From the NCBI GenBank assembly GCA_003510435.1, contig DOMK01000001.1, forward strand, positions 26,604 through 90,603: 64,000 nt of DNA. Direction: 5' to 3'. The notes beneath the pieces are model-generated. The model ran no database searches and had not been told where the DNA came from. It worked only from the letters and a program-made list of their open reading frames with translations. Below, one piece after another: positions 1-62,572 of this stretch; the first letter of the stretch is position 1, and the number at the start of each line of letters is the position of its first letter. The position numbers were made by a program, and so were the translations under genes. This DNA is from Candidatus Magasanikiibacteriota bacterium (GTDB lineage: Bacteria; Patescibacteriota; Patescibacteriia; Magasanikbacterales; UBA922).

Positions 1-972
1 GATATCCAAGTTACCCAAGAAAAACTTGATTCATTGCAATTGGAAATTGAAACTTTGCAATTATCAATCGAGGATAAAGAAAAGGTGATGAATAAACAAA
101 AATTAATTTTAGCCGAGTTAATCCAAGATATTCATTATAATGACAATAAAAATTATTTAGAAATTGCTGCTAGTTATGATAATTTTTCTGATTTTTATAA
201 TCAATTGCAATATGTCCAAACTATAGATCAAGAATTGGGTAAGAGTGTCAAGACTCTACGTGGAATTAAAGAAGAATTGCAAGATAAAAAAACTCAAACT
301 GAAGAGCGTAAAAAATCTTATGATGATTTGAAAAAAGAATTGGAAGGTAAAAAAGCTGATTATAAAGATCAAGTTAATTATAAAGCCACCTTATTGACCC
401 AAACTCAATCATCTGAAGCTAAATATCAGACATTACTCGCTAGTTTAAAAGCTCAATATCAACAAATAGAAAATGAGGTTTCCTCTATCGAACAGGAAGT
501 GAGAAGAAAATTAGAAGCTGCTAATAAATTGGATAATATTCCAGGTGATTCAACTCAATTATCTTGGCCAACACAGAGTCGGTATTTGACAGCTCGTTTT
601 CATGATCCAGATTATCCCTATCGTCATGTTTTTGAACACACAGGAATTGATATTAGAGCCGGACACGGGACAGCTCTAAAAGCGGTGGCTTCTGGTTATG
701 TAGCGCGCGCTAAACATTGTTCACTCTCAAGTTGTTATAGTTATGTTATGTTGGTCCACTCTAGTGGAATTGCCACTGTTTATGGCCACATGAGTGGTAT
801 TACAGTCTCAGAAGATCAATTTGTGACAAGAGGTGATGTAATTGGCTATTCTGGTGGTACACCTGGTACGGTTGGAGCTGGTCCGTTTGTCACTGGTCCA
901 CATCTTCATTTTGAAGTAAGAAAAGATGGTATCCCTGTTAATCCGTTGAATTATTTGGTTCAAGATTGGTAG
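1..972 (+). CDS. M23 family metallopeptidase (LytM-like) with long N-terminal coiled-coil; 5' end runs off the window
   Basis: Reading frame open from position 1 (the Met at 34 is internal). Charged coiled-coil N-terminal half, then an M23 peptidase-like C-terminal region (GIDIRAGHGTALKAVASGYV ... GPHLHFEVRKDG). Confidence 0.75.
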   Translation, partial: DIQVTQEKLDSLQLEIETLQLSIEDKEKVMNKQKLILAELIQDIHYNDNKNYLEIAASYDNFSDFYNQLQYVQTIDQELGKSVKTLRGIKEELQDKKTQTEERKKSYDDLKKELEGKKADYKDQVNYKATLLTQTQSSEAKYQTLLASLKAQYQQIENEVSSIEQEVRRKLEAANKLDNIPGDSTQLSWPTQSRYLTARFHDPDYPYRHVFEHTGIDIRAGHGTALKAVASGYVARAKHCSLSSCYSYVMLVHSSGIATVYGHMSGITVSEDQFVTRGDVIGYSGGTPGTVGAGPFVTGPHLHFEVRKDGIPVNPLNYLVQDW

Positions 973-1020
973 AAAAACACGAGACATAAAACACATATCA
1001 CATAACACGAGACAATTTAT

Positions 1021-1389
1021 ATGGCGAAAAATGACTACCATCAAAAATTGAGAGGATTGATTGTGGAGTACATCGTTTTAGGTTATAAGTCTTTGAAAAA
1101 ATTTCCTGATGACGAAAAGTATGGAATGATTTCACAATGTAAAAGAGCTCTGGTTTCAATCCTTTTAAATTATTTAGAAGGATTTGCTAGAACAAAGAAA
1201 AAAGTAATGGTAAATTTTTATGAAATTTCCTATGGCTCATTACAAGAAACTATAGGAATTTTTTATTTAGCAATATTTTTAGAATTTATTTCAAAAGAAG
1301 AATATAAAAAGTTGTTCGATATAAAAGAGGAAATAGCTAGAATGTTGTGGTCAACAACAAAAGGTGTAAAACAGGAAGATAGAGAATAA
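1021..1389 (+). CDS. four-helix-bundle protein (23S rRNA intervening-sequence protein family)
   Basis: 122 aa; helical; the LVSILLNYLEGFAR ... SYGSLQETIGIFYLA pattern is typical of the IVS-encoded four-helix-bundle family. Flanked by inverted repeats (see repeat feature and finding). Confidence 0.65.
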   Translation: MAKNDYHQKLRGLIVEYIVLGYKSLKKFPDDEKYGMISQCKRALVSILLNYLEGFARTKKKVMVNFYEISYGSLQETIGIFYLAIFLEFISKEEYKKLFDIKEEIARMLWSTTKGVKQEDRE

Positions 1390-1394
1390 AAACC

Positions 1395-1454
1395 ATTTGC
1401 CTTGTGTTGTGTGGTTTGTGGATTGTGTTATGTGATGTGTCGCACAATATTTTA
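1395..1454. repeat. inverted-repeat arm (TGTGTTATGTGATGTGTCG) complementary to ACACATATCACATAACACG at ~995-1020; the two arms bracket the four-helix-bundle ORF
   Basis: Read directly: the upstream arm cacatatcacataacacg is the reverse complement of the downstream arm tgtgttatgtgatgtg(tcg). Confidence 0.5.
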
Positions 1455-1503
1455 GTAGGGGAGAGGGAGCATGAAGAAGAGTAGGGGTGTTATTATAAAT
1501 TTA

Positions 1504-1540
1504 AAAAAGAGTTGGTTTCGTGCCAAACTCTTTTATTTTT
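1504..1540 (+). terminator. rho-independent terminator (AGAGTTGG-loop-CCAAACTCT + T-run)
   Basis: aaaaagagttggtttcgtgccaaactcttttattttt: perfect 9-bp stem followed by a T-tract, downstream of the plus-strand genes. Confidence 0.6.
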
Positions 1541-1805
1541 AAATTATTTTGAATTACTAATTACTAATTCACCTAATTTCTAATAAAAATTAAAATAAAA
1601 TTTTTAAATTAGTATTTTCTACATGCTGGAACGGTGAGAGTGTGATAAATGTATTAAATAGCATTAGTTATAAGCTTTTTTGGCTTAACTTAGTGATATG
1701 TTCATACCTGGGTTCTGAAAAGCCCTAGTATGTAGTGTCGTATAAGATATATTGTGCGACGCCAGTACTATCTTGAGCTAAGGAGAAAAAGCTATTCTCC
1801 CCTGC

Positions 1806-2822
1806 CTATTGCCAATAAACTTTTCCCAAATAACGAAGATCAATATATTGTAAATTATTTCTTTTTACTTTATTTTTTAAAGTAAATTGTAGTTCTTCAA
1901 ATTGTTTATCAATTTCTTTATCAAGTTTCACTTTTATGTTCCAACCCTCTCTGGTTTTGATTACCCCGTCGCCTAGGTCATTTTCTAGGACTACATAGCC
2001 AAATGGTATGTCAGTTTTCTTGGTTAATAAATTGAACCAATTTATAATCCCAGCCACATTAACTTCATCCAAAACCCGGTCATTCAAATTTGTATCTTTA
2101 TTTCTAATATCATAAACAATTGGATAGTCTCCCATTTCATTCACTATATTTCTAACTGATGGTATATGGGCTAATTTTATTATTTCAGTTTTTGTAATAG
2201 TTTCTCCAGTTTCATTGGTTGAAGTCGTTGTTTTGGTTTGTGTTTGCCATTCGTCATCCCCGACTTTGCGAAGAATTTCTACAATGTGGCCGTCAGTACC
2301 AATGTAACTGTAATTTTTTCCATTATCATATATTAGAGTGGAAATTTTTTCTTCAATATTAATATTTAAAACATTAGGAAAAGTCTTACTAATCACAATT
2401 GACTCAATAGGAAATTTTTCTTTTAAAATATCTCTAACCTCATCTAGGTCAACTATAAAATAATTTTGTCCAGGTAGAATAAATAATCGTTTGTAATTAA
2501 TTACACCTAGTGTGGCATTTTTTATTTCTGTTTCAGAAATTCTTTGCAAGCCTGTGATATTTATAGTTTTTATATAAAAGAAATGACTGAAGACACTAAT
2601 AATTATCATGGATAAAACAGCTATTCCCAAAATTGATAATTCAATAATCTTTTTCCAATCCTTCTCCCCTTGTTCTTGCCAAAATGGATTTCTTTTTCTT
2701 TTATGCCAGTCAAAGTCTCGATGAACAGTATTTTTTGATGAAGAAAAAATAAAATCAGAAGCGATCTTCAATCCCCGACCCCATTTGCGTTTGTGTTTGT
2801 GAATATTGAAATTATTGTACAC
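1806..2822 (-). CDS. ftsQ: cell-division protein FtsQ/DivIB-like (N-terminal TM + POTRA domain)
   Basis: Single TM (ILGIAVLSMIIISVF), then a POTRA-like block IKTINITGLQRISETEIKNA ... YFIVDLDEVRDILKEKFPIESIVISKTFPNVLNINIEEK. Confidence 0.55.
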   Translation of the reverse strand: MYNNFNIHKHKRKWGRGLKIASDFIFSSSKNTVHRDFDWHKRKRNPFWQEQGEKDWKKIIELSILGIAVLSMIIISVFSHFFYIKTINITGLQRISETEIKNATLGVINYKRLFILPGQNYFIVDLDEVRDILKEKFPIESIVISKTFPNVLNINIEEKISTLIYDNGKNYSYIGTDGHIVEILRKVGDDEWQTQTKTTTSTNETGETITKTEIIKLAHIPSVRNIVNEMGDYPIVYDIRNKDTNLNDRVLDEVNVAGIINWFNLLTKKTDIPFGYVVLENDLGDGVIKTREGWNIKVKLDKEIDKQFEELQFTLKNKVKRNNLQYIDLRYLGKVYWQ

Positions 2823-2833
2823 AAAAAAATATT

Positions 2834-3847
2834 TTATAATTCAGAATAAATTTTATTTATTTTTTCTATTATTGTTTTATCAACATCAAACCAGCCTTGT
2901 TTTAGACATTTAGCTTTGCATCTATAAGCTCTTTCGCCAGGTATAAGTATTTCTTGGTATTTTGCCATTTTTTTAGAATTTTTCAATTCTTTAATTAAGG
3001 CAGTATTTTCTCGTTTAAACTTATTAAGATTAACAAATTTACTTGGGTCAATGGCCAAATATAAAGCCCCACGGTATTTCCATTTTCCGTCTTTACTATT
3101 ATTTTTTAATCCAAAACCAGAATTTACTAGTGGCCCAGTTAAAATTTCAAATAATATTCCCAAAGCAAAGCCTTTGTAACCACCAAAAGGCAAAGCAGCA
3201 AAGGCATCATCTGGATTAAGGGTTACTTCCCCCTTTTTATTAATGAAAGCGTCGTTTGGTAATTTTTTATTTAGTAATTTTGCTAATTGTATTTCTCTAT
3301 AGGCTCTCACAGATGTGGCCATATCAGCTACAATTGGCAAGCCAGTCGTAGGGACAGCAAAACCAATAGGATCAGTACTAATAATTGGATCAATTCCTCC
3401 GTACGGAGCTACGAGTGGTCCTCCGCCATTGTGAAAAATAAGAGCGATTAAATCATGTTTAGCCAAAGCCTCAGCTTGACTACCCGGACGAAGAATTGCT
3501 CTGGTGTTGTAAGTGCCAACCATGGCAATGCCAAATTTTTTAGCTTTTTTTATTAAAATTTTTCTAGCCATTTCTGCCACCAATTGCCCAGCCTGTCCTT
3601 GGCCATCGATCAAAGTAAAAACTGCATCATCTTTTGTGATTTTAATTTTTTCGGTTTTAGAACTTTCTAATATTCTTTCGATATCATAAACTCCATTTAC
3701 AAAAGCGCTTAGGCCGTGGCTTTTTTTGTTTAGCAACTCCCCTTCTAGATAATCAGAAAAAATAATTTTAGTAGCTTTGCTTGATACGCCACTTTTTATT
3801 AAAATTTGTTCGCATTTTTTTCTAATTTCATTTATTTTTACCCGCAT
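2834..3847 (-). CDS. Ldh_2 family (malate/L-lactate/sulfolactate dehydrogenase-like) oxidoreductase
   Basis: 337 aa; GQGQAGQLVAEMA ... ILRPGSQAEA ... HNGGGPLVAPYGGIDPIISTDPIGFAVP ... GGYKGFALGILFEIL matches the Ldh_2 architecture. Confidence 0.6.
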   Translation of the reverse strand: MRVKINEIRKKCEQILIKSGVSSKATKIIFSDYLEGELLNKKSHGLSAFVNGVYDIERILESSKTEKIKITKDDAVFTLIDGQGQAGQLVAEMARKILIKKAKKFGIAMVGTYNTRAILRPGSQAEALAKHDLIALIFHNGGGPLVAPYGGIDPIISTDPIGFAVPTTGLPIVADMATSVRAYREIQLAKLLNKKLPNDAFINKKGEVTLNPDDAFAALPFGGYKGFALGILFEILTGPLVNSGFGLKNNSKDGKWKYRGALYLAIDPSKFVNLNKFKRENTALIKELKNSKKMAKYQEILIPGERAYRCKAKCLKQGWFDVDKTIIEKINKIYSEL

Positions 3848-3865
3848 ATTTTTAAAGTTTTTATG

Positions 3866-4297
3866 TTAAGTAATTTTACTTAAATCACCATAAACAACTA
3901 TTGGTTTTACAGCTTTAATTTCTGATTCACAATATGGTATATCTGGTATTGGATTTAGCATAAAAATTTTTTGGTTTAAAACATGAGCAAATCCTATCTC
4001 CATTAAAGTGTTGGCGCCAACATAATTTTTAATCCCGTTTTTATCTAAGTTTAAAACCAATACAGCATCAGCTCCTTGCATCATGTTCCAAAATTCACGA
4101 ATTGCATCAAGATTGTATTTTTGATAGAGTTTAATTTCTTCTATTTCCTCAGCTGATTTGTTGATCATTGTTTTGTGAAAATTTGTTAAAAAAGCTTCAT
4201 GACCTAGTTCAGAAAGTTTATCACGATACTCTACCATTTTATCAGTAAATTGCATGGAGCCTATTATCCCTATTTTCATATCAAATATAATTATCAA
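3866..4297 (-). CDS. nucleoside 2-deoxyribosyltransferase-like small protein
   Basis: 143 aa; the IGIIGS ... GANTLMEIGFAHVLNQKIFML pattern resembles the Rossmann-like deoxyribosyltransferase fold. Weak call. Confidence 0.4.
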   Translation of the reverse strand: MIIIFDMKIGIIGSMQFTDKMVEYRDKLSELGHEAFLTNFHKTMINKSAEEIEEIKLYQKYNLDAIREFWNMMQGADAVLVLNLDKNGIKNYVGANTLMEIGFAHVLNQKIFMLNPIPDIPYCESEIKAVKPIVVYGDLSKIT

Positions 4298-5343
4298 AAT
4301 CCTCTCTTAATTTTTCTAAATGATTCAACTAACCAATTTACCCAATACTTTTTTGTAATTGGTAAATCTTGACAATGCAATAAATCTTTTTGATAACCAC
4401 CAAAGCCCTTTTTAAAATGAGTAATACCAGCAAATGGATGATTTTTTGGTGAGTTTTCTGGGGCAATTCCCCAAAAATTATAATATTTTATATTTCTTTT
4501 CCTGGCTTCTTTAATTGCTTCCCATTGCAATAAATATGAGCTTGGTAAGCGTTTATCAAGCCCCAGCGAAGCTCCATGGCGATAAGCCGCCATATTGCCG
4601 TAAAACATGACTATAGCAGAAGAATCTAATCTACCATCTGGTAAGTAAGCATTAAGAACTAAAGCTTCATTGTTTGATGAAAAAACAGAAAATTCATTGG
4701 TAATATATTTTTTGGAAAAACGATGAAAATTATGACGCTTTGCTGTCTCGTCATGAAGTTTATTAAAATTTTCCAGGTCAACCACTTGGTTTTTAATTTC
4801 AATGGTTACATTTTCTTTTTCACAGCGGTGAATTAGATTGCGGTGATTTTTGTTCATGTCAGCTAAGAGTTGATCTTCAGTCTTGTCTAATTCCAAAAGC
4901 CAAGTAGTTTCGGCCAAGACGTGCATTGGGGCTGGTCTAAAGCCTAATTTTTTAAATAGATTTTTATTATCCTCTGTCTCATCTAAAAATGGACTGATTC
5001 TAATAAAATCATATTTATTTTTTTGCGCAAAAGTTTTTAAATAATTAACAAAAATATCTAAAAATTTGTTTATCTCCCCAACTGGGCCATAAGGTAGATA
5101 AAGAAAATTACCTCTTTTGGCATGGGTACTAATAACTAATGAGCCACCAATTAATTTATTATCTTCATAAACACCAAAAATCCAGGATTGTTCAGACATT
5201 GATTCATAAAATTTTCCATAATGAAAAGATTGAACAAATAATGCCATGCCCCGCACCGAGTTTTGCTCTGGTGTTGGGGTATTCACTTGTGATAAAACAA
5301 AATTTTCCCAGTCACTTTTATTCTCAATGATCTTGACTTCCAT
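4294..5343 (-). CDS. FemAB-family peptidoglycan interpeptide aminoacyltransferase-like protein
   Basis: 349 aa; duplicated GNAT-like halves (GSLVISTHAKRGNFLYLPYGPV ... NAYLPDGRLDSSAIVMFYGNMAAYRHGASL), typical of FemXAB/lipid II aminoacyltransferases. Confidence 0.6.
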   Translation of the reverse strand: MEVKIIENKSDWENFVLSQVNTPTPEQNSVRGMALFVQSFHYGKFYESMSEQSWIFGVYEDNKLIGGSLVISTHAKRGNFLYLPYGPVGEINKFLDIFVNYLKTFAQKNKYDFIRISPFLDETEDNKNLFKKLGFRPAPMHVLAETTWLLELDKTEDQLLADMNKNHRNLIHRCEKENVTIEIKNQVVDLENFNKLHDETAKRHNFHRFSKKYITNEFSVFSSNNEALVLNAYLPDGRLDSSAIVMFYGNMAAYRHGASLGLDKRLPSSYLLQWEAIKEARKRNIKYYNFWGIAPENSPKNHPFAGITHFKKGFGGYQKDLLHCQDLPITKKYWVNWLVESFRKIKRGF

Positions 5344-5346
5344 AGT

Positions 5347-6585
5347 TTAGTATTGGTTTACTAAATTAATTATTCTTTCCGCATCTGTATTTGTAATATT
5401 TTTATCTGTGGGTAGATTGATAGACATAGCGGAAAGTTGTTCAGCTTTTGGACAATCCCCTGCTTTGTAGCCAGATTTGGTAATGTTAATATCAGCCGGC
5501 GCAATAGGACAAGAATACCAATCGCCCAAAATTATATTTTGATTTTTAGCTAACCTTCTCAATTTATGGGGATTTTCGACTAAAATTGTATAACGCAGCC
5601 AAACAGATTCATTAGTCCAGTCTGGTTTAGTAATTTTTGGATTATTAATTTTATCATTGTAAAGTTTGGCAATCTGTTGTCTGTGATTATTAAATTCAGA
5701 AATTTTTTCAGTTTGATTTAATAAAATTTTAGCCAGAGCATTAGGTAAGAGTGAAGGATAAAATAAAACTTGTTTGCCAATTTTTTCTTGCTTATAAATT
5801 ATCTTATTTGTCAGATTTAGTTTTTTTGCTATAGCCAATATCCACTTCCCTACTCCAATACTATACAATTTTTTACCAATAAAAAATATTGGATAATGGC
5901 ATAGATGTTGTTTTATTTTTAATAATCTAGAGTGTGGTAATCGTGTTTGATATTCTTTTATTTTACTAGCAGTTTTATCATCATTTGTAATCAATCCCCC
6001 GCCTCGGACACATGAAATGATTTTGTCGCTCCCAAAACTAAAAATTCCTATATCTCCAAAAGTGCCAAGTAATTTATTATTAAATTTTCCACCAAGAGAA
6101 TGGGCACAATCCTCAATAATTTTTAGATTATTTTCTTTGGCAATATTTAATAACTTTTCTAGATTGGCCGGTTTTCCAAAAGTGTGTTGAATAATTAAAA
6201 CTTTTGCCTTGTTAGTAATTTTTTTTTGCAAATCATTTGCATCCATATTGAAATCACTATCTATGTCTACATAAATTGGTTTAGCCCCTGTCCAAACAAC
6301 CGCATTACTTACTACCATACAAGTGTAGGCTTGAACTAAGACTTCATCATCTGGTTTTATATTTAATGATTTTAAAGCGTAAAATAAAGCTGTCCGACCA
6401 CTATCAAAAGCAAAAGCATATTTAGTAGAAAAATAATTTTTTAGCCAAGTTTCTATTTTTTCCGCACTGTCCCCTTTTTTCCAACTCCAGGGTTTAAACA
6501 AAAGACCGCAAGCGGTTTTTACATCTTGGTTGGTTAGATTGGGCGCAAAGCCAGTAAAAATAAATTTTTTAAATATGGAACTCAC
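5347..6585 (-). CDS. DegT/DnrJ/EryC1/StrS-family PLP-dependent sugar aminotransferase
   Basis: AFDSGRTALFYALKSL ... VLVQAYTCMVVSNAV ... IIEDCAHSLGGKF ... FSFGSDKIIS (PLP-binding lysine motif). Confidence 0.75.
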   Translation of the reverse strand: MSSIFKKFIFTGFAPNLTNQDVKTACGLLFKPWSWKKGDSAEKIETWLKNYFSTKYAFAFDSGRTALFYALKSLNIKPDDEVLVQAYTCMVVSNAVVWTGAKPIYVDIDSDFNMDANDLQKKITNKAKVLIIQHTFGKPANLEKLLNIAKENNLKIIEDCAHSLGGKFNNKLLGTFGDIGIFSFGSDKIISCVRGGGLITNDDKTASKIKEYQTRLPHSRLLKIKQHLCHYPIFFIGKKLYSIGVGKWILAIAKKLNLTNKIIYKQEKIGKQVLFYPSLLPNALAKILLNQTEKISEFNNHRQQIAKLYNDKINNPKITKPDWTNESVWLRYTILVENPHKLRRLAKNQNIILGDWYSCPIAPADINITKSGYKAGDCPKAEQLSAMSINLPTDKNITNTDAERIINLVNQY

Positions 6586-6590
6586 AAAAT

Positions 6591-8198
6591 TTAGATTAAT
6601 TTGGAATTATCCCTAATTTCTTTCATAACTAATTCTGGAATGCGGTTTTCTAATAAAACTACTGAACCACTATTTTTAATATTTTTTATATAAGTTAGTA
6701 ATTTTACCGGTTCAAAAATTTCTTTAATTTCTAAACGATATTTTTGACTTAGAGACCCTTCAGTGAGAGGTTTGACAAAATCAGGCGTAATTATAACTAG
6801 CTCATCGGTACTATAAGAGATTTCTCCGCCAATTTTTTCGTGGATTTCATTACTTTTTTCTCCCAATTCTAACATGCCTCGAGTAATTACAATTCTCTTA
6901 CGTTCATTTTCAAAATTAGTAATATAATCTAAAGCCGCTTTAAAACCTTCGGGATTGGAATTATAGCTGTCATCAATAATATCACAATTGCCATATTTGA
7001 AAATATGAATAGTTTGCGGTAGATTTTTTATAACACCTTTAATCTCTTCCTCTGTCATTCCTAAATAACGAGCTACTAATGTGCATGGTAGAACATTCAT
7101 GGTATTGTGACTACCACGTAAGTTTGAGTCTATTTGAATTTCTACATTTTGACAAATCACGACGACTTTACCACCTTCAGTATTTTTTTCTATACTCTTT
7201 ACCAAGATAGTTGGTTTATGTTCTTCTTCTGTACCAAAGGTCATTACTTGACAATTTAATTCATTTAAAAATTCCCGACAATATGAATTGTCGCTATTAG
7301 TAATAGCTAAGCCATCTTTTGGTAGAGACCTGAATAATTCATATTTGGCCTTTTGGGTTTTTTTAATATTACCAAATAGCGCTATGTGCTGTTCATTGAT
7401 GGCAGTCAAGATACCAATTTTTGGTTTTACCATATCGCAAATCAATTTTATTTCTCCTTCGGCATAAGCACCCATTTCTACTATAAAAATATCTGTATTA
7501 GAAAAATTAGTTTTTAAAATAAATTTGGCTATGCCAATTTCGGTATTAACATGTTTAGGCGTACTTATAACATTAAATTTACTTTTTAAAATATGATCCA
7601 AAAAGATTTTTACTGTCGTTTTGCCATAACTGCCAGTAATACCGATTATTTTTAAATTTTTATATTGGCTAATTTTTTTTCTAGCGCGATTAATTAATAT
7701 TTTTTTTATTAAATCAGTCATTAGATTAAAAGCATAAACTATTAAACCTAAAATAAAAATTCTTGTCATCATTAATATTAATAAAGCATCCCAATCGTGT
7801 GATTTAAATAATAAACTTACTTCTAGTAAGATTGGGATTGAGATTAATAATAAAGATTTTAGAGTAATAGCTGGCTTAATAAATTTTTTTCTTTTAAATA
7901 TTTTATGTATATCATGGATGAAATTAATAGCCAAGATAGCCAAGATAACTATTTTTTGGATCTCAATGTTCAAAGGTAGAAATAAGGCGACCATTATTAA
8001 AAAGGCCCGATGGACAATGTTAAATTGAAAAGTAAAATGTTTACCTTGCTCAGTACTCAAAAAATCACGAAATCTATCCCAGCGATATTCTTTAAGTTGG
8101 AAAAAATACACAAAATAGCTATAATCCGAGATAGCTGAAAAAATCCAGAGAATAAAAATTATAGTATTAATATCAGAAAACATATTATTAATTAACAA
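6591..8198 (-). CDS. murF: UDP-MurNAc-tripeptide--D-Ala-D-Ala ligase (MurF) with ~170-aa N-terminal polytopic membrane extension
   Basis: Mur ligase P-loop IIGITGSYGKTTVK and ATP-grasp-like body (FIVEMGAYAEGEI ... ILTAINEQHIALFG). N-terminal 170 aa are hydrophobic helices. Confidence 0.75.
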   Translation of the reverse strand: MLINNMFSDINTIIFILWIFSAISDYSYFVYFFQLKEYRWDRFRDFLSTEQGKHFTFQFNIVHRAFLIMVALFLPLNIEIQKIVILAILAINFIHDIHKIFKRKKFIKPAITLKSLLLISIPILLEVSLLFKSHDWDALLILMMTRIFILGLIVYAFNLMTDLIKKILINRARKKISQYKNLKIIGITGSYGKTTVKIFLDHILKSKFNVISTPKHVNTEIGIAKFILKTNFSNTDIFIVEMGAYAEGEIKLICDMVKPKIGILTAINEQHIALFGNIKKTQKAKYELFRSLPKDGLAITNSDNSYCREFLNELNCQVMTFGTEEEHKPTILVKSIEKNTEGGKVVVICQNVEIQIDSNLRGSHNTMNVLPCTLVARYLGMTEEEIKGVIKNLPQTIHIFKYGNCDIIDDSYNSNPEGFKAALDYITNFENERKRIVITRGMLELGEKSNEIHEKIGGEISYSTDELVIITPDFVKPLTEGSLSQKYRLEIKEIFEPVKLLTYIKNIKNSGSVVLLENRIPELVMKEIRDNSKLI

Positions 8199-24930: not shown

Positions 24931-27900
24931 TCACAATTGTCTAAATTCACAAATTTCCTTAAAATCACAATACTGACAAACATGTTTGTTTGGTGTGGCT
25001 GTAAAATCATTGGATTTAATTTGAGTAATTGTCTTAAGAATTTTTTCTTGTAATTTTTCTAGATCTTTAGCTTCACCAATAAAGGACGTTTTTATATTAT
25101 CATTGACATAATAAAAAGTTAGCTGGCCCACGGGACCAATGTTTCTATATTCAGGTAGAGTCTGAGTCGCGATTTGATAAATCAAAAGTTGTTGTTTGTC
25201 CTCGGTTGTTAAAGTTTCTTTGGACTTGCCAGTTTTGTAATCAATAATTTCTAAACTACCATCCGCTACTTTGTCTATTCTGTCAATTCTACCATGTACA
25301 ATGTAGTTACCTACTTTAACCTTGAACCACCCTTCCAATGATACAGGTACAGTCCACTTGCCATCTTCTGAAGAATAAAATATTTTCAAAATTTCTTTGC
25401 CTTTGGCATAGTATTTTTCCCTTTGTTCACGACTATTGTACCAGTCAGAAGCCCAATTTTTTTCATACATTTCCAATAATTCTTTTTCACTCGGAACTAT
25501 TATCTCCCCAGTATCTGATTTTTTTGTTTCTACTGGTAGACCAAACAAAGACGCTTGCTTGACACTATTTAATTCTTGAATTTTATTATAAAAATCCTGC
25601 AAAGTATTGTGAATGGTATTTCCAAAGCTAAAACTGGCACTGCCTTTCATGGGGATTTTTAAAACATGCGCTAGTTTGTATTGATAAGGACAACGTTCGT
25701 AGGAGCTGATTTGGGAGAAAGAGAACTTGTTGGGTGTTTCGTAAATTAACTCCTCGCCTACTAGAGGAAGTTTAGGAGAAGTCATTTTTAAATCCAAAAT
25801 TTGTTTTTTATCCAGACCCCCTCCAACTCCCCCTGATAGGGGGAGGGCATCAGACAGTTCTGCTAAAAATCTACTAATTTTCTTTTTTCTTGTTCCACCA
25901 TAATCTTCGGCACTGGTTAAAAATAGTTTTTCTTTTGCTCTTGTACAGGCAACATAAAATAAGCGTCGCTCTTCGGAATAATGAAAATCATCACTAGGTA
26001 AATTATCCTTGACTAGCTCATCGGGCAATTCCAAATTACCGCCTTTTTTTCTGGTAGGAAATCTTTCTTCAACTAAATTTACTACAAAAACATATTTATA
26101 TTCCAAACCTTTTGCCCCATGGACTGTAATAATATTAACTGAATCTGGTGTATCTTCTGGCTGGTAAATTTTTCCACCGTCACCGGATTCAATAATATTA
26201 TTAAAATGTTCTACAAATTCTAAGACTTTGCAATCGGGTGTAATTTGTTCAAAAGTTTTAATTAAATCAAAAAGTTGTCTAAGGTAATTTATTTGCCGAA
26301 TAATTTCTCTGTCGCCATTGGTTTCGCCATGAGTCAAGTAAGTTAAATATCCACTATTTTCTAAAAAATTGTATAAAACAGCGGTTGGTCTTTCATATCG
26401 CGCCTGCTTCATACCACTGTGAATAGTTTCTAAAATTTTACTAGCAATTTTTTGTCCGCTAGCAGAAATGTCAAATTCCACTCCTCGTTTTAAAATTTCG
26501 TAATAACTAATAGATTTCTGTTTGGCTCTAGCGGTAATTTTTTGCATGTCATTTTCATCCATTGCCCAGGCTGGCATACGTAAAAGTCGATACATGGCTC
26601 GGTCATCATAAACATGGGTAAGTAATTGAAAAAAAGCTAGGCAATTTAATACAATAGCCTGTCTATAAAGGCCAGATGAGGCCAAATACTCATATGGAAT
26701 ATTAGTCTGCTCTAAAGCGTGAATAAAGGGCTCTACGTGCGAGTTAGCCCTGACTAAAATGGCAAAATCATCCCATGATATTGATTTCACTGATTGTAAT
26801 TTGATTTCACTGATTTTTTTGATTACTTCCTGAACTTCATCATCTAAAGTTTGACAATGTATGTGTTCAATTTCAGTTTTGATGGTATTTTTAGCAATTA
26901 GTTTCTTATCAATTTTTAATTTTACTTCAAGGCGATCAGGATTATTATTTTGAATACTTTTATAACTTAGATCTAAAATTTCTTGACCAGAACGATAATT
27001 TTCATTCAAAACAATTTCTTTGGCATTTTTAAAATCTTCTTTAAAATGCATAATGACTGAAACGTTTGATCCACGGAAACTATAAATACTTTGGTCATCA
27101 TCCCCTACTACTGTTAGTTGACAATTCTGAGGCAAAGCCGAAGAATCCCGCTGTTTATCGCTTGAACCACAGGATCCTTCATCACTTCGTTCTTCAGGAT
27201 TAGCTAATAATTTTATTAATTGATATTGTGCCCAATTTACATCTTGAAATTCATCTACCAAAATATAGGTGAATCTGTCTTGCAAAGTTTTTAAAATATT
27301 TGGTCGATCTTTTAATAATTTGACAGTATAAAAAATCAAATCCCCAAAATCTAAATAACCATTATCCAAAAGTAATTGATTATAAGTATGATAAGCATTG
27401 GCGAGCTCTGTTTGACGATTTTTATCTTGGATATTAACTTCGTCTTTATCCATTTTTACATTTTCCACATATTCCAAATATTCAGTGGTAGAAACTAATT
27501 CATCTTTGGCTTTGGAAAAATGATTCAAAAGCGAATGAATCATAGACATGGGACTACCAAGCGGACGGTAATAATCTAGATTGAAATCGTACAAATGTTT
27601 TTTTACCAAGAGCCAAGCATCAGTGTCAGTAAGAAGTTTGAAACGTGATGGCAAACCAATTTCCAAACCATATTCCTCAAGAATTTTTTGACAAAAAGCA
27701 TGAAAAGTAGAGATTTGTAAATCTGTGTATCCAATATCCAAAATTTCATCCACTCTTTCTACCATTTCGCCAGCGGCTTTTTCTGTAAAAGTTAAGGCCA
27801 AAATATTTTCTGGCTTGGCTAATTTTTGATCAACCAAATAAGCAATCTTTTGGGTGATTACTGTGGTTTTGCCTGTACCTGCTCCGGCCACGATTAAAAG

Positions 27901-27960
27901 TGGACCAGTGGTATATTCTATGGCTTGTTTTTGTTGATTGTTTAGATTATATTCAGACAT
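24931..27960 (-). CDS. UvrD/PcrA-type SF1 helicase fused to a C-terminal RecB/Cas4-like PD-(D/E)xK nuclease with Cys cluster (AddA-like)
   Basis: Walker A AGAGTGKTTV, helicase motifs, C-terminal GRIDRIDKVADGSLEIIDYKTGKS + CPYQY ... CQYCDFKEIC. Two in-frame repeat insertions (27135-27200; 25816-25850). Confidence 0.8.
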   Translation of the reverse strand: MSEYNLNNQQKQAIEYTTGPLLIVAGAGTGKTTVITQKIAYLVDQKLAKPENILALTFTEKAAGEMVERVDEILDIGYTDLQISTFHAFCQKILEEYGLEIGLPSRFKLLTDTDAWLLVKKHLYDFNLDYYRPLGSPMSMIHSLLNHFSKAKDELVSTTEYLEYVENVKMDKDEVNIQDKNRQTELANAYHTYNQLLLDNGYLDFGDLIFYTVKLLKDRPNILKTLQDRFTYILVDEFQDVNWAQYQLIKLLANPEERSDEGSCGSSDKQRDSSALPQNCQLTVVGDDDQSIYSFRGSNVSVIMHFKEDFKNAKEIVLNENYRSGQEILDLSYKSIQNNNPDRLEVKLKIDKKLIAKNTIKTEIEHIHCQTLDDEVQEVIKKISEIKLQSVKSISWDDFAILVRANSHVEPFIHALEQTNIPYEYLASSGLYRQAIVLNCLAFFQLLTHVYDDRAMYRLLRMPAWAMDENDMQKITARAKQKSISYYEILKRGVEFDISASGQKIASKILETIHSGMKQARYERPTAVLYNFLENSGYLTYLTHGETNGDREIIRQINYLRQLFDLIKTFEQITPDCKVLEFVEHFNNIIESGDGGKIYQPEDTPDSVNIITVHGAKGLEYKYVFVVNLVEERFPTRKKGGNLELPDELVKDNLPSDDFHYSEERRLFYVACTRAKEKLFLTSAEDYGGTRKKKISRFLAELSDALPLSGGVGGGLDKKQILDLKMTSPKLPLVGEELIYETPNKFSFSQISSYERCPYQYKLAHVLKIPMKGSASFSFGNTIHNTLQDFYNKIQELNSVKQASLFGLPVETKKSDTGEIIVPSEKELLEMYEKNWASDWYNSREQREKYYAKGKEILKIFYSSEDGKWTVPVSLEGWFKVKVGNYIVHGRIDRIDKVADGSLEIIDYKTGKSKETLTTEDKQQLLIYQIATQTLPEYRNIGPVGQLTFYYVNDNIKTSFIGEAKDLEKLQEKILKTITQIKSNDFTATPNKHVCQYCDFKEICEFRQL

Positions 27961-27992
27961 ATTTATTTATATTTTAGCACAATTTTTGAGAC

Positions 27993-28021
27993 TTGACAAA
28001 GGTGGTAGTATATGATATTTT
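27993..28021 (+). promoter_or_regulatory. sigma70-type promoter TTGACA-N17-TGaTATTTT (extended -10) reading into the GC-rich island
   Basis: ttgaca at 27993-27998, 17-nt spacer, TG at 28013-14, tatttt at 28016-28021. Confidence 0.45.
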
Positions 28022-28029
28022 ATACAGTT

Positions 28030-28260
28030 CAGTATTATAGGCGAGAGGTCTGTAAGTTTTTGCTTATAGGCCCTTCTCCTAATCGTCGGGAGAGGCGTGC
28101 AAGAGCACGTATAAGTCAGCTGAATGCCGGGGTGTCGGCATGGAAAAACATCCCAAGAGGGGTGGCTGACAGGGATTGTACCCAGACGATAGTCCAAGAG
28201 GACTAGGGCATTGTACTAGTCGTTTAGTCAACGACTGGTGTCTCCAAGCGGAGATATACA
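28030..28260 (+). other. GC-rich ~230-nt leader with multiple predicted stem-loops (possible cis-regulatory RNA or ncRNA) upstream of the island ORF
   Basis: Local hairpins such as cccttctcctaatcgtcgggagagg, gccggggtgtcggc, agtcaacgact; composition jumps from very AT-rich to GC-rich exactly here. Confidence 0.3.
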
Positions 28261-29196
28261 ATGAATTCCACGACTAAACTGCGGAGAATGACGATGAAGC
28301 GTTGCTTGTCAGAGCAGTTCAACATCCTGATGGATGAATTGGCCTCCATTGGTATGGCTGGCCTCTTCTGCCTCATCATCGGGATGGCCAAGAGCAAGTC
28401 GCAATTGGCCAGGTTCCACAACGAACTCAAGCCCAACCAGCGTCTCGTGCGTGGAGATTATATCATGCTCGAGGACTGGTGGGAGGCCTCGTATGAAAAG
28501 GCCAGAGGAGAACTCACTGAAGTGGCTAGAGAGAAGTTGCAAGAAGTGATTCTTCTCTCCTATCGCAACGAGCACAGTGCTGCGAATCTGAGCCACTACT
28601 ACGAACGGAAAATTAACGAGGAACGTTGGAGTAGAGAACATCCGAAAACCCCGCTTGCAACTTCTAGCGTCAACCTCGTGCTCTCTTGCCCCGAACGTGA
28701 CGGGCATGGCTACCACCACTTTCGCGCGTTCATGTTTAATGTAGAATTTGAAGTCAGTTGTACTTTTCTGGATAGCACACTACTAGTTCATATGTGCATC
28801 AAGAGAAATAAACTGACCGAAAATCTCGTACACAGGATTCTGACGTCCAAGCTGGTTAATGCCAGTTTCGGACATACAGGAGTGTATGTAAATAGTGGTG
28901 ATGAGCTGACCTTCAGGTTCGATCTCGGGGCTGATATAGGTAGGCGCTTGAAGGAGATGATCTCGGCATTTGATAAATCCGAGGGCGCTCACCGACGTGC
29001 TGACGTAGTGGCCATGGACACTTTTGCACATGAGGTTGGAAGAAACCTCATTGACGTCTGTGACCTTGAGCTGGATGGGCTCTACGCTGTAGTGCTGTTT
29101 GTCGCAGATGACCCACGTTGTCTGCAGTCAACGGTATTCGAGGATGGCGCACCGCACGCCAGGCATCGGGTCTGGTGCCATCGCACCAACGCCTAA
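28261..29196 (+). CDS. hypothetical protein (311 aa) encoded on a compositionally foreign GC-rich island; no recognisable domain
   Basis: Long ORF with GC-rich codon usage unlike all neighbours. Lies between a consensus promoter and two intrinsic terminators. Opposite-strand ORFs here look like GC-composition artefacts. Confidence 0.55.
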   Translation: MNSTTKLRRMTMKRCLSEQFNILMDELASIGMAGLFCLIIGMAKSKSQLARFHNELKPNQRLVRGDYIMLEDWWEASYEKARGELTEVAREKLQEVILLSYRNEHSAANLSHYYERKINEERWSREHPKTPLATSSVNLVLSCPERDGHGYHHFRAFMFNVEFEVSCTFLDSTLLVHMCIKRNKLTENLVHRILTSKLVNASFGHTGVYVNSGDELTFRFDLGADIGRRLKEMISAFDKSEGAHRRADVVAMDTFAHEVGRNLIDVCDLELDGLYAVVLFVADDPRCLQSTVFEDGAPHARHRVWCHRTNA

Positions 29197-29235
29197 GACC
29201 ACAGAAGACTTTACAACTCGGAGGATGTGAAGTGA

Positions 29236-29306
29236 CACGGGCGACCTATGACACCCCACAGGTCGCCCGTTCAAAAAAACAGATATTGTTAAATGTCTGT
29301 TTTTTA
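29236..29306 (+). terminator. tandem intrinsic terminators (ACGGGCGACC...GGTCGCCCGT then AAAAAAACAGA...TCTGTTTTTT)
   Basis: Two perfect hairpins, the second followed by a T-run, immediately 3' of the island ORF. Confidence 0.65.
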
Positions 29307-29328
29307 ATATTACATTTTATTATAAATT

Positions 29329-29751
29329 TTATTTCAAAGTAATAATATAAGCTCCACCAGCAATCATGGCTGCACCCATTACACTGCGCCAAGTGAGGCC
29401 CTCACCCAAAAACAAAGCCGCGAGAATAATAACAAAAATTATACTAAGACGGTCAATGGCGACCACTTTTCCAGCCATACCATATTTAAGCGCAAAAAAA
29501 TAAAATAACCAGGATAGTGCGCCGGCAATACCAGATAAAGTAATTAATAACCAATCTTTACCATTTAAAGAATGAAAATTAAAACCATTAAACTTTTTTA
29601 AAGTTAGAGCGACCAGAAATAGAAAAATTGCCATGATAATTGAGCGAATCGTAGTTGCCAGTGTAGAATCAATTGTCTTGAGACCAAGTTTGCCAAAGAT
29701 TGCTACGGCTGCGGCAAAGATGGCAGATAAAAATGCATATAATAACCACAT
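29329..29751 (-). CDS. small 4-TM EamA/DMT-superfamily half-transporter-like protein
   Basis: 140 aa, four hydrophobic helices with an EamA-like pattern (AIFGKLGLK ... IIFVIILAALFLGE). Confidence 0.5.
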   Translation of the reverse strand: MWLLYAFLSAIFAAAVAIFGKLGLKTIDSTLATTIRSIIMAIFLFLVALTLKKFNGFNFHSLNGKDWLLITLSGIAGALSWLFYFFALKYGMAGKVVAIDRLSIIFVIILAALFLGEGLTWRSVMGAAMIAGGAYIITLK

Positions 29752-29866
29752 AAAGCATTGATTTAAACTGATTTAAACTGAATATATATTAACATTAATC
29801 AGATAAAAAGAAAACAGGCTTGTACAGAGCTCTGCTTTCTTTTGTGAGAGTGAAAAAATGTGTTAG

Positions 29867-29926
29867 TTAGTTACAACCGCAACCACCGCCACAACCTCCA
29901 CCGTCAGTTAAATTTTTATTCTTCAT
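29867..29926 (-). CDS. 19-aa Gly/Cys-rich peptide MKNKNLTDGGGCGGGCGCN (short paralog of the two downstream Cys-rich peptides)
   Basis: Found by hand translation; shares the C-terminal G-C-G-C-N motif with peptide 3. Preceded by a consensus promoter and AAGGAGGA. Confidence 0.35.
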   Translation of the reverse strand: MKNKNLTDGGGCGGGCGCN

Positions 29927-31775: not shown

Positions 31776-32257
31776 AAAGTTGATTAATAAATTATAAATT
31801 AAGATGATGGTATTATACTATAATTAACTCAAAAGAAACAATATTCGTGGGGATAAAAAAACACTCACCAATCTCCTTGAACTAATTCCATAATATAGAA
31901 TCAATTCAAGTGCGGTGAGTGTTTTTTACACTACCCCAACCCACCATCCCACTGGATAGCGGGGTTGGCAGCTCTTCCACAACTAATGATGGTTCCGGTC
32001 TAGACGACCGGGTAGACCAACGTGTGGTCGGGGAAGAACACTTTCTTTTGTACCATCCCCTCCGACATCTCCACCCAACCTGTGGCGTTGAACTGATGAT
32101 GACCTTCTTGGGTCAACAACAGTTTCTCATAAATTGTTCCATCTGGGTGTTCACCCTGACGAAACTTGCCGTTGATAGGCAATTGACCAAAGCTCATATC
32201 CATGAATAAACCATACGGTAGTTTGAGTAATATATTTTATATTAATTTTAAATTTTG

Positions 32258-32762: not shown

Positions 32763-32868
32763 ATCTCGAGCGAAGCGAGAGATCCCTTTTCATTGGGTTT
32801 AACTTCGCTATATTTTAAGTATTGTTTAATGTTTTGGAAAGGGATTCCTCACCCTTCGGGATTCGGAA
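32763..32868. repeat. family-B palindromic element (~105 bp; CTCGAGCGAAGCGAGAGATCCCTTTT...AAAGGGATTCCTCACCCTTCGGGATTCGGA) between atpD and atpC
   Basis: Near-identical copy at 37411-37520; diverged copy at 45721-45835. Confidence 0.65.
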
Positions 32869-37410: not shown

Positions 37411-37520
37411 CCAAAGCGAGAGATCCCTTTTCATTGGGTTTAACTTCGCTTTATTTTAAATATTGTTTAATGTGTTGGAAAGGGATTCCTCTCCGTCAGC
37501 TGACGGATCGGAATGAACGA
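37411..37520. repeat. family-B palindromic element between atpF and atpH; supplies the last codons of atpF
   Basis: taatctcgagccaaagcgagagatcccttttcattgggtttaacttcgctttattttaaatattgtttaatgtgttggaaagggattcctc... Confidence 0.65.
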
Positions 37521-45724: not shown

Positions 45725-45835
45725 TCCGAGTGTAGCGAGGAATCCCTTTTCCTTGGGGTTAACATCGGTTTTATTTAATGCTTTTTTTAATGAATCAAAA
45801 AGGGATCCCTCACCCTTCGGGATTCGGGATGACGG
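45721..45835. repeat. family-B palindromic element (diverged copy)
   Basis: tcattccgagtgtagcgaggaatcccttttccttggggttaacatcgg...aaaagggatccctcacccttcgggattcgggatga. Confidence 0.6.
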
Positions 45836-60658: not shown

Positions 60659-60898
60659 ATCTAACTAATATAATTTGTGAAGATTTGTGATAATTTAGGT
60701 AATTTGAGTTCTATTTGAACATGGTTATTATACCACAAAGTTAGACTTTTAAATATTTTGTCAATGGCGTTGATTTTTAAAAAAACAAAAACCATCCTAC
60801 TCCCACGCAAATCTAAAATAATTTTAAACTTACGCGGACGGATGGCTTTTGAGTGGGAAAAAGAGCTATTGGAGAAAAACCAACCGTCAGCGGGTGAA

Positions 60899-61348
60899 TC
60901 ACCAGGAGCCGTGATACCTGCTGTCCGACTCCTGGGACACCTTGATGACCTGTTGTCGACTGATGACGACGAGCTGGAACATGTGGTGGCAGTTCGGACA
61001 CCTGATCGGCCCCGTGGTCGCGTTCGATAGCAACGAGACCTTCCTGCCACAGTCCTCGTGGGGGCACTGGACGCTGGCTTGCCCCGCGTGGATCTGCATG
61101 TCAGGAAGAGCCTTGGGCTTGGGCGTCGTGTCGGTCTTCTTGGACGCGGACGACAACGACTGGCAGTTGGGGCACAGCCCGTTGTGCTTGGTCGTGAGAC
61201 CGTTGCACTGAGGGCAACGCTCCATCTGCCCATCCTTGGTGCCGACGGCGTTGCACCGCTGGCACCAGTACTGATCGCCATGGTGCGGGTGAGGCACCAT
61301 GTGGTGGGGCTTGGCCCCTTTACACCCTTTCCAGAGACCCTTCTTCAT
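60899..61348 (-). CDS. His-rich, multi-CxxC zinc-ribbon protein on a GC-rich island
   Basis: 149 aa with CQRC ... CPQC ... CPNC ... CPHEDC ... CPNC. GC-rich codon usage unlike neighbours. The other long frames across this island are composition artefacts. Confidence 0.5.
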   Translation of the reverse strand: MKKGLWKGCKGAKPHHMVPHPHHGDQYWCQRCNAVGTKDGQMERCPQCNGLTTKHNGLCPNCQSLSSASKKTDTTPKPKALPDMQIHAGQASVQCPHEDCGRKVSLLSNATTGPIRCPNCHHMFQLVVISRQQVIKVSQESDSRYHGSW

Positions 61349-61411
61349 CGAAACACCACTTGGTTGAATTCTCCAATAGAAATTTAATCATTTCTACTTA
61401 AAAATGTCAAT

Positions 61412-62572
61412 TTATTTTTTTATTATTTTATACACCCCTGCCTTTTTCCCAGAAATTAATACTGAGAAATTTTGTTCTAATATAAATTTATCAGTAAAGT
61501 CTTTTAATAAATCTAAAAATAATTCTCTCTGCCCCAACAATACAACCGCCACGCCACCTGGTTTTAAAACTCTAAAAAATGATTGAAGCATCTGGGTGTA
61601 AAATATATTTAATTCACTCTCGCTCTTTTTATTAAAAATCCCCCACGGTGGATCAGTCACAATTTTATCAATTGAATTATTAGCAATACTGGGCAAAACC
61701 AAAGCATCACCATTATATACTTCAATTTTCAAATTCATCCTTTGGACATTAGTTTGCAAATAATTAACTAGTTTTTTATCATTGTCCGTGGCAATCACGC
61801 GCGTATACTTATTTATTTTTACCCGCTCAATCGGAATCGCACCCGAGCCAACAAACGGATCCAAAAAAACATCAGTCTTATTCATGTCTGACAATTGACA
61901 CAAAATATTTGTCACTTCGGGACGGAGTTCACCTTGTTGAAGACTCTTGGCTGAATCATGGTTGTGAGTAATCCGCATACCAAAAAATCCCCTGCCTTCA
62001 CTCCGCAATAATATCCAAAATTCAATATCAGGTTTTTTTCGATTAGTTCTATATTTGGTAAAGTATTTTATTTTTTCTTCCAATTTTATTAAAAGCGTAT
62101 TGTCCACGGCTGACAATTGATTTTCTTTGGAAGTAATAATGCGAAAAGTTTTTTGTCTCACTGACAAAACCGGAATATTAAGCTTGGCATTATTCACCAA
62201 TTCATTAAGCATTAAATCTAAGGATAAATTTTTGTCAGAAAATTCTTTTATGAGAATAAAAGTATTATTTACAAACCGTAATTCTTTTACTTTGTTTACA
62301 TCTGTCGTAGTAGTATAAACAACTAACCCGTCCAAAAGTAAAACAATCTTGGTTTTATCCAGAGATTTAATTAGAAAATCTTTGACGGCATTTTCAAAAC
62401 CGCTTACAAATGTTGAATAATAGATGTACATAATAAGGAATAAGGAGAAAGGAATAAAAAAATATAATAAACTCTGTTTGTTCTGTTTGTTCTGTTTGTT
62501 CTGTTTGTTCTGTTTGTTCTGTTTGTTCTGTTTGTTCTGTTTGTTCTGTTTGTTCTGTTGTAAAATTAACAA
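61412..62572 (-). CDS. class I SAM-dependent RNA methyltransferase (DPPW amino-methyltransferase motif; THUMP-like N-terminal region) with (QNK)9 N-terminal repeat
   Basis: FLDPFVGSGAIPIE (motif I), IVTDPPWG (motif IV). True start may be the ATG at 62431 downstream of the repeat. Confidence 0.6.
   Translation of the reverse strand: MLILQQNKQNKQNKQNKQNKQNKQNKQNKQNKQSLLYFFIPFSLFLIMYIYYSTFVSGFENAVKDFLIKSLDKTKIVLLLDGLVVYTTTTDVNKVKELRFVNNTFILIKEFSDKNLSLDLMLNELVNNAKLNIPVLSVRQKTFRIITSKENQLSAVDNTLLIKLEEKIKYFTKYRTNRKKPDIEFWILLRSEGRGFFGMRITHNHDSAKSLQQGELRPEVTNILCQLSDMNKTDVFLDPFVGSGAIPIERVKINKYTRVIATDNDKKLVNYLQTNVQRMNLKIEVYNGDALVLPSIANNSIDKIVTDPPWGIFNKKSESELNIFYTQMLQSFFRVLKPGGVAVVLLGQRELFLDLLKDFTDKFILEQNFSVLISGKKAGVYKIIKK
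62474..62560. repeat. perfect tandem repeat (CTGTTTGTT)x~9.5
   Basis: Read directly. In frame it encodes QNKQNK... at the 5' end of the methyltransferase ORF. Confidence 0.9.

Follow-up and report, generated by a model that had tools for sequence, protein, structure and literature searches.

The window analysed here, a 64,000-nt stretch of contig DOMK01000001.1 from an AT-rich Candidatus Magasanikbacteria genome (Patescibacteria/candidate phyla radiation, CPR), contains a GC-rich island that encodes a structured leader RNA of ~240 nt followed by the gene of a 300-aa protein. We observed that this RNA and this protein always occur together, and only in Patescibacteria/CPR, in the data reached so far, and we are highly confident that they constitute a genuine conserved RNA-protein module. 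Four hairpin loops of the leader match each other within a locus and change together between loci. Taken as a whole, the data are best explained by a CPR RNA-protein module in which the leader loops are bound by protein, a reading that we regard as having about an even chance of being correct.

The original prediction had described the leader as GC-rich and full of hairpins, and folding agreed with this. The window leader folds at -104.9 kcal/mol (z = -7.4 compared to shuffled sequences), and a homologous leader from the Patescibacteria contig JAHJGH010000055.1 (L001) has z = -4.7. The leader is composed of nine helices and one pseudoknot, arranged as follows:

28038-28269, plus strand: conserved structured leader RNA with helices P1 to P7 and a pseudoknot, based on z-score, covariation and shared architecture
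28038-28081, plus strand: P1, a long hairpin whose 3' strand includes the pyrimidine block CUUCUCC (28073-28079), invariant or nearly so in all leaders
28082-28087, plus strand: 5' strand of P2, AUCGUC, which pairs over a long range with GACGAU at 28185-28190 and closes domain 1
28089-28095, plus strand: junction purine block GGAGAGG, complementary to CUUCUCC at 28073-28079; RNAalifold predicts this alternative helix, which excludes P1 and P2
28096-28109, plus strand: P3, CGUGC-AAGA-GCACG, iso-loop hairpin 1; two-sided compensatory changes in 5/5 columns
28115-28170, plus strand: P4, a helix of GUCAGC (28115-28120) and GCUGAC (28165-28170); 6/6 columns covary
28123-28140, plus strand: P4a, a variable hairpin inside P4
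28149-28164, plus strand: P4b, CAUCCC-AAGA-GGGGUG, iso-loop hairpin 2, inside P4; 5/6 columns covary
28181-28183, plus strand: 5' strand of the pseudoknot, CCC, which pairs with GGG at 28206-28208 and crosses P2
28185-28190, plus strand: 3' strand of P2, GACGAU
28191-28204, plus strand: P5, AGUCC-AAGA-GGACU, iso-loop hairpin 3; 4/4 columns covary and all cells (100%) form canonical pairs
28206-28208, plus strand: 3' strand of the pseudoknot, GGG, within a near-invariant GGG(G)CRU block
28209-28263, plus strand: P6, a helix of CAUUGUA (28209-28215) and UACAAUG (28257-28263), with an ATG at 28261 in its 3' strand
28216-28238, plus strand: P6a, inside P6
28239-28256, plus strand: P7, UGUCUCC-AAGC-GGAGAUA, iso-loop hairpin 4, inside P6

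In domain 1, P2 closes a junction of P3 and P4, and P4 carries P4a and P4b. Domain 2 consists of P5 followed by P6, which surrounds P6a and P7. When both leader halves were folded without constraints, this architecture recurred at nearly every one of 11 loci.

Comparison between loci shows that this structure is maintained by compensatory evolution. In a MAFFT alignment made from sequence only, 78% of cells pair, compared to 41-48% with slid partners (0/500 shuffles), and two-sided changes occur in 33/51 pairs, compared to 21.7 in shuffles (0/500 shuffles). RNAalifold independently detected compensatory changes in 29/39 of the pairs it predicts. MAFFT alone mis-registers P3, P4 and P5, and automatic hairpin parsing was corrected by hand; after registration by hand, canonical pairs make up 94.9% of cells and two-sided changes occur in 39/53 pair columns (0/1000 shuffles). 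The central pair of P2 is A-U in six cases, G-C in four and G-U in one. In the pseudoknot, the C-run and G-run lengths covary among loci (2, 3 or 4), flanking A-U, U-A and G-C pairs extend the helix to 5-6 bp in two loci, and 98% of cells are canonical versus 79.5% in shuffles (0/1000).

The leaders share the blocks CUUCUYC-NNN-UCRUC-N-GRAGARG, CCCC and GGGGCRU. The CUUCUYC block is complementary both to the 5' strand of P1 and to GRAGARG, and one column of the alternative pairing with GRAGARG covaries perfectly (C-G in three, U-A in eight). Since the two pairings are mutually exclusive and the second also blocks P2, they carry the signature of a conformational switch. Searches of Rfam 15 returned 0 matches at gathering thresholds in the whole window; with the cut-off relaxed to E = 10 on 27900-29400 they gave only noise, the best match having E 0.7 and lying on the opposite strand. 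The leader is thus a new RNA family absent from Rfam 15. The earlier description of the leader as resembling a riboswitch, attenuator or noncoding RNA stood in so far as it is a conserved, covariation-supported structured RNA. As to expression signals, there is no terminator-like site on the plus strand in 28022-28294, no leader hairpin is followed by a U-tract, and the ribosome-binding site (RBS), with a probability of being unpaired of 0.38-0.72 across loci, is not sequestered by any conserved helix. The CUUCUYC/GRAGARG pairing does not involve the RBS either.

We observed that the loops of P3, P4b, P5 and P7 are alike within a locus and unlike between loci. They are almost always closed by a C-G pair, and read:

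Window and L004: AAGA three times and AAGC once
L138: AAGA four times
L139: AGGA four times
L008: CGGA three times and AGGA once
L007: UGG three times and AAGA once
L010, L100 and L130: mostly (A/C)CGA, with one CGU in L130
L031: CCA or UCA
L140: UUGG

Identical loop pairs within a locus number 34/66, compared to 7.4 expected (0/20000 permutations), and the excess holds with 7 non-redundant loci. The stems of the four iso-loop hairpins differ in sequence and only the loops match, so homogenisation of a repeat is not the source of the match. This concerted variation is most simply read as co-evolution of the loops with a partner that they share. The only candidate that accompanies the RNA in every case is the encoded protein. 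Recognition of the loops as CsrA-type GGA sites, or a role as Shine-Dalgarno mimics, would fit the AGGA and CGGA loci but not the AAGA loops of the window or the ACGA and UGG loci.

Next, we considered how strictly RNA and protein are linked. In all cases where DNA upstream of a family member could be retrieved (13 distinct loci), the leader is present 5' of the gene, and the layout of TTGACA promoter, leader and open reading frame (ORF) is identical in all of them. A degenerate probe built from the shared blocks, which has a zero chance expectation in the window, matches all known leaders except the L008 type (L008 and L009), in which the 3-nt spacer is lacking. Scanning genome, metagenome and viral collections with this probe yielded 126 stretches, ~117 of them chance matches after filtering with hidden Markov models and nhmmer, and a full-length leader was found only where the protein is also encoded. 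These loci include Patescibacteria 'Modern_marine' and Candidatus Kerfeldbacteria. No viral stretch was among the leader-probe loci, and a search for related loci with the family alignment returned no viral relatives. All named hosts of relatives are Patescibacteria/CPR, and nothing in the data points to a high-GC host or partner organism as the proposed donor. A literature search found no prior description of this RNA or protein, and CPR genomes are not mentioned in the GC-rich intergenic survey PMC11109978, the one survey searched for them.

The second component of the module is specified by two features:

28283-28296, plus strand: RBS GGAG (28283-28286) and start codon ATG (28294-28296), 7 nt apart
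28294-29196, plus strand: gene of a 300-aa protein that represents a new family, based on 53 homologues, their alignment and an AlphaFold2 model

The gene had been predicted as a 311-aa ORF starting at ATG 28261, 33 nt too far upstream. That codon sits in UAUACAAUGAAUUC, the 3' strand of P6. In addition, M1 of the closest homologue (P0003) aligns with M12 of the longer product, and in L004 the UAUACAAUGAAUUC block is non-coding and the ORF begins 3' of it. Together with the GGAG spacing, this places the start at 28294 and the product at 300 aa. At locus L139 (positions 340-360 of a Logan ERR1019577 contig), the annotated start lies inside the 3' strand of P6, with AGGAG of the P7 loop 7 nt upstream, and the protein as annotated is ~20 aa longer at its N terminus than other family members. 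Either this annotated start is wrong, or the RNA structure directly occludes translation initiation in that lineage.

An exhaustive HMMER scan of 1.84 billion cluster representatives identified 53 relatives at E <= 1e-3, including 13 at E <= 1e-10. They are 21-38% identical to the window protein and most are 260-320 aa long. A word-indexed search of 5.8 billion proteins recovered the protein itself only, plus one relative in a later run. Conserved motifs of the family are LHxxLPxNxRLLRxD, LExFW, YY (with an invariant Tyr), S-CPER-G-HGxxHF and LTEELTH. The invariant residues include H53, R61/R64, Y114, H150/H154 and E187, numbered as in the 311-aa ORF. The 300-aa protein has no significant match in Pfam, NCBIfam, PADLOC or PHROG, all 50 family members examined lack a convincing Pfam match, and the family profile gave 0 matches to PDB sequences even at E <= 10. 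With 53 distant homologues that make up a family, the protein is not without relatives. AlphaFold2 with the family alignment produced a confident model (predicted local distance difference test, pLDDT, 85.7; predicted template modelling score, pTM, 0.83), compared to a pLDDT of 42.7 in a single-sequence run. The model consists of a predicted six-helix N-terminal domain followed by a C-terminal alpha/beta domain and has no structural neighbour in the PDB or among predicted viral structures, suggesting a new fold. A HEPN-like Rx4-6H motif in 'ERDGHGYHH' was judged unlikely because in the model it falls in a beta-rich region, not in an all-alpha HEPN fold.

The module lies in an island (28035-29272) of ~50% GC on a ~33% background. 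GC content rises from 0.33-0.37 to 0.48-0.56 across ~28000 to ~29300 and drops again thereafter. In 400-nt bins it is 0.485-0.52 in the three island bins and 0.24-0.42 in nearly all other bins of the window. GC at third codon positions (GC3) is 0.58 for the island ORF compared to 0.24-0.30 for neighbouring genes, and its leucine codons are 0% TTA (42% in the background) and 70% CTC plus CTG (7% in the background). The abrupt switch in composition and the foreign codon usage noticed in the original prediction are thus real, and synonymous choice is almost inverted. The island ORF has 6 stops in its own frame compared to 24-31 in the other plus-strand frames, and GC at first codon positions exceeds that at second positions; both indicate a real coding sequence. 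It is the sole plus-strand ORF that overlaps no other gene in 1806-63973, and in this sense it is indeed the only plus-strand gene in ~60 kb. Its protein is identical to the NCBI entry 'hypothetical protein DEB09_00300'. Among the JGI, ENA/SPAdes and Logan contigs, identity is 100% across 27500-29900, a range that includes both junctions. Since three independent assemblies agree, the junctions are real and a chimera is ruled out as firmly as assembled contigs allow. The island and its surroundings carry the following further features:

27993-28021, plus strand: near-consensus sigma-70 promoter, with -35 TTGACA (27993-27998), a 17-nt spacer and -10 TATTTT (28016-28021); 10/12 positions match
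28013-28014, plus strand: TG extension of the promoter (extended -10)
29234-29272, plus strand: GC-rich 3' hairpin with no U-tract
29274-29305, bidirectional: intrinsic terminator with A-run, 14-bp stem and U-run, common to the island and the convergent EamA gene
29329-29751, minus strand: EamA gene, convergent with the island ORF
27952-29804, no strand assigned: variable cassette slot (module plus EamA), with no counterpart in a sister genome syntenic on both sides

The extended -10 promoter matched its earlier description, and transcription is predicted to start at ~28028. In all five homologous loci compared (those with upstream DNA), a TTGACA is found 281-320 nt 5' of the start codon. The 3' region of the island folds with z = -7.4 and forms two hairpins. 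These had been called a double terminator, but only 29274-29305 is a true one; the hairpin at 29234-29272 is possibly an mRNA-stabilising or processing element. With its own promoter, leader, ORF and terminator, the island is a self-contained unit, as proposed earlier.

We compared the locus with the sister Magasanikbacteria genome GCA_049287025.1 (L141), whose helicase is 90% identical. Homology ends exactly at 27951 and picks up again at 29805. The corresponding slot in the sister genome (5558-7003) holds two genes, one for a 160-aa GNAT acetyltransferase and one for a DUF4238 protein of 256 aa (27% GC). The GNAT protein has a weak PADLOC match only (PDC-M11A, E 4e-6), and the pair could be another accessory or conflict cassette. 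As a check, the original prediction had suggested looking in relatives for an empty site with the helicase directly next to EamA; no such junction was found in the nearest relative, and EamA itself is part of the variable segment. By synteny, the locus is a variable cassette slot and not a clean insertion site. For horizontal acquisition, the foreign composition and the difference in slot content fit acquisition or exchange, but the difference from the sister genome is not a clean insertion. A mobile element (insertion sequence or integrative element) was rejected: there is no transposase or integrase domain, no flanking repeat among the repeats reported across the window, and a single copy in the window. 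GC content of the family gene is ~51-53% in 5/6 loci measured and 43% in the sixth (L010), with flanks at 34-48%, so that high GC looks like a property of the module itself.

Genomic neighbourhoods differ in every locus compared. In the groundwater contig L004, a complete type III restriction-modification system and a KAP-NTPase gene (1-5468) are located on one side of the module, and a short methyltransferase-like fragment with a mad2-like PADLOC match (6985-7476) on the other. In L001, a 1.2-kb gene-free gap upstream of the module contains three short units (4600-5310), each with a TTGACA or TTGATC promoter, an RNA of ~85-125 nt and a hairpin plus U-tract terminator. These are candidate small RNA genes clustered beside the module.

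We propose the following mechanism. The near-consensus promoter drives a single transcript, of which the first ~240 nt fold into the conserved pseudoknotted RNA and the remainder encodes the 300-aa protein, with the 3' hairpin and terminator after it. The four matching loops would be recognition sites for the protein of the same transcript, probably as an oligomer, and the loops of each lineage would co-evolve with their own protein. Binding may repress the protein's own translation or the stability of its mRNA, as in an autoregulatory operator, or it may hold the protein inactive, with the RNA as a type III-like antitoxin or decoy. The CUUCUYC/GRAGARG alternative pairing, which excludes P1 and P2, would be a possible conformational switch. 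From the strict co-occurrence and the concerted loop variation, we put the chance that the protein binds the loops of its own leader at somewhat short of even. A more far-reaching version is possible but doubtful: a new CPR-specific RNA-protein class in which four lineage-specific 'address' loops assemble or restrain an oligomer of a new-fold protein, serving as a new type of RNA-antitoxin, abortive-infection or other conflict system, with horizontal exchange among these episymbionts.

Autoregulatory mRNA leaders offer a partial parallel, such as the E. coli thrS operator with its two anticodon-arm mimics and the ribosomal-protein leaders rpsO and L20 with their pseudoknots. As in these, a structured 5' leader containing a pseudoknot precedes the gene of its proposed binder, and repeated identical loops could match an oligomeric protein. 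In contrast to them, the leader described here is much larger and more elaborate, its RBS is not obviously within conserved structure, its protein is not a known RNA-binding protein, and the module is accessory and sporadic rather than housekeeping.

Several observations weigh against binding of the loops by the module's own protein. Pfam, PADLOC and structure searches revealed neither a structural neighbour nor a domain recognisable as that of an RNA-binding protein, a nuclease or a toxin, and RNA binding by this protein is something that we infer. A host factor could recognise the matching loops instead, or the loops could serve RNA tertiary packing. The loops belong to a complex fold that includes long-range helices and a pseudoknot; known protein operators and type III antitoxins are less elaborate. 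The hand-registered alignment was fitted to the structure, and there are only 11-13 distinct leaders, several of them related, so that the shuffle statistics overstate their independence. Finally, a defence context was found at L004 only; the other loci are flanked by housekeeping genes.

An alternative that we consider unlikely is that the RNA is processed off the transcript and forms a stable ribonucleoprotein with the protein, acting in trans as a scaffold, guide or decoy for a cellular or phage target instead of regulating its own gene. RNA and protein are strictly co-inherited in an accessory, exchangeable module with a strong, conserved promoter, and the RNA blocks are better conserved than the protein (21-38% identity). 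Moreover, the structured core stops 25-45 nt 5' of the RBS, and the RNA could therefore be separated from the mRNA. However, we found no processing signal, internal terminator or second promoter, and no recognisable nuclease or other effector domain. Nor does any variable 'guide-like' segment stand out: variation lies in hairpin stems and in loops of 3-4 nt, which are not long enough to choose a target. It is quite unlikely, in our estimate, that the leader acts as a riboswitch or as another kind of ligand-sensing cis-regulator, in which the pseudoknotted junction would bind a small molecule or ion and control the downstream gene, with no contact between protein and RNA. Its location in the 5' untranslated region as a conserved, covarying structure would suit this, as would the conserved single-stranded blocks (CUUCUYC, UCRUC, GRAGARG, CCCC and GGGGCRU) around multi-helix junctions and a pseudoknot, and the covarying pairing that excludes P1 and P2, much like switching helices. 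The same combination of a long non-coding stretch that stands out as GC-rich from an AT-rich genome, multi-helix junctions, pseudoknot, conserved junction nucleotides and possible switching helix is shared with riboswitches and with the GC-rich intergenic structured RNAs of AT-rich genomes found in surveys by the Breaker laboratory (PMC11109978, PMC6429828, PMC8723152). Unlike those, the leader has no Rfam 15 family and shows no clear expression platform, with neither an intrinsic terminator/anti-terminator nor conserved RBS sequestration, and it is tied to a single orphan protein family. The lack of a terminator, the lack of consistent RBS sequestration and the tie to one orphan family argue against a classical riboswitch. 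That family has no metabolic or transport annotation and thus provides no link to genes of coherent function, its distribution is rare and sporadic, and for four peripheral loops that change in concert a part in sensing small molecules is not evident.

Type III toxin-antitoxin modules (PMC3401426, PMC5086642, PMC8860590) resemble the module in their order of promoter, structured RNA, protein and terminator. Here too a single promoter (27993-28021) serves an RNA directly 5' of the protein gene, in a compact, standalone two-part accessory module of foreign composition, and one relative lies beside a type III restriction-modification system. As in ToxIN, CptIN and TenpIN, the RNA contains a pseudoknot and several equivalent recognition elements of lineage-specific sequence, which recall the cognate ToxI-ToxN specificity described previously (PMC3401426, PMC5086642). 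We nevertheless regard a canonical toxin-antitoxin or abortive-infection system of this type as very unlikely. The leader is one integrated ~240-nt fold with long-range helices rather than a string of separable units, and tandem repeats of ~34-45 nt are absent (Tandem Repeats Finder detected none in 27980-29320 at a minimum score of 30). There is no Rho-independent terminator between RNA and ORF. The protein lacks sequence or fold similarity to the ToxN, CptN and TenpN endoribonucleases, with no match to them in Pfam or PADLOC and no Kid/MazF-like structural match. Least probable, to the point of being negligible, is that the island is an assembly chimera, or an ordinary recent transfer from a high-GC host with leader hairpins that arose by chance. 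The abrupt GC shift at both ends and the foreign codon usage would agree with either, but the three identical assemblies speak against a chimera, the conservation and covariation in 11-13 loci against chance hairpins, and the exclusively CPR hosts of named relatives, with no high-GC donor, against such a transfer.

The window contains other features of note. A second GC-rich island (60840-61350, minus strand) reaches 57% GC in one 400-nt bin and holds a 149-aa ORF (60899-61348, minus strand) with GC3 = 0.85, sub-threshold zinc-ribbon Pfam matches and a TTGACA-like promoter near 61408; a 206-aa ORF that overlaps it in another frame is probably spurious. This island, too, resembles a single-gene cassette of foreign composition, apparently from a source of much higher GC than the main island. 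A third GC-rich patch (31930-32215, minus strand; ~50% GC) contains a 67-aa ORF (32000-32203) that lacks a Pfam match, and a TTGACA lies a short way 5' of it, near 32255. At 31860, directly before this patch, synteny with the sister genome stops, so the patch may be another variable slot. At 62464-62568, a perfect 9-nt tandem repeat (TCTGTTTGT, ~11 copies) inside the ORF 61412-62572 (minus strand) would encode a 3-residue peptide repeat. An 81-nt sequence occurs three times (32773-32853, 37414-37494 and 45733-45813; two copies 95% identical, the third 64%) at or near minus-strand gene boundaries; it may represent either the terminus of a gene in repeated form or a small dispersed element. A scan for tRNA and tmRNA genes found none in the window.

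In conclusion, the module joins a ~240-nt structured RNA family that has a covariation-supported pseudoknot to a family of ~270-320-aa proteins with a confidently predicted fold, neither of which has a described counterpart. We regard both components as new and their combination as far from any described system, while its functional class is what we infer. The concerted change of four loops is an unusual signature that suggests an RNA-protein recognition code, in which swapping the loops would swap the specificity. The regulatory and conflict biology of CPR/Patescibacteria is almost unexplored. Should the module turn out to serve in defence or as a toxin-antitoxin pair, the biology of RNA antitoxins would no longer be confined to those built of tandem repeats; should it be a regulator, it would represent a new class of large cis-acting RNA. 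Either way, an orphan RNA and an orphan protein each gain a defined partner.

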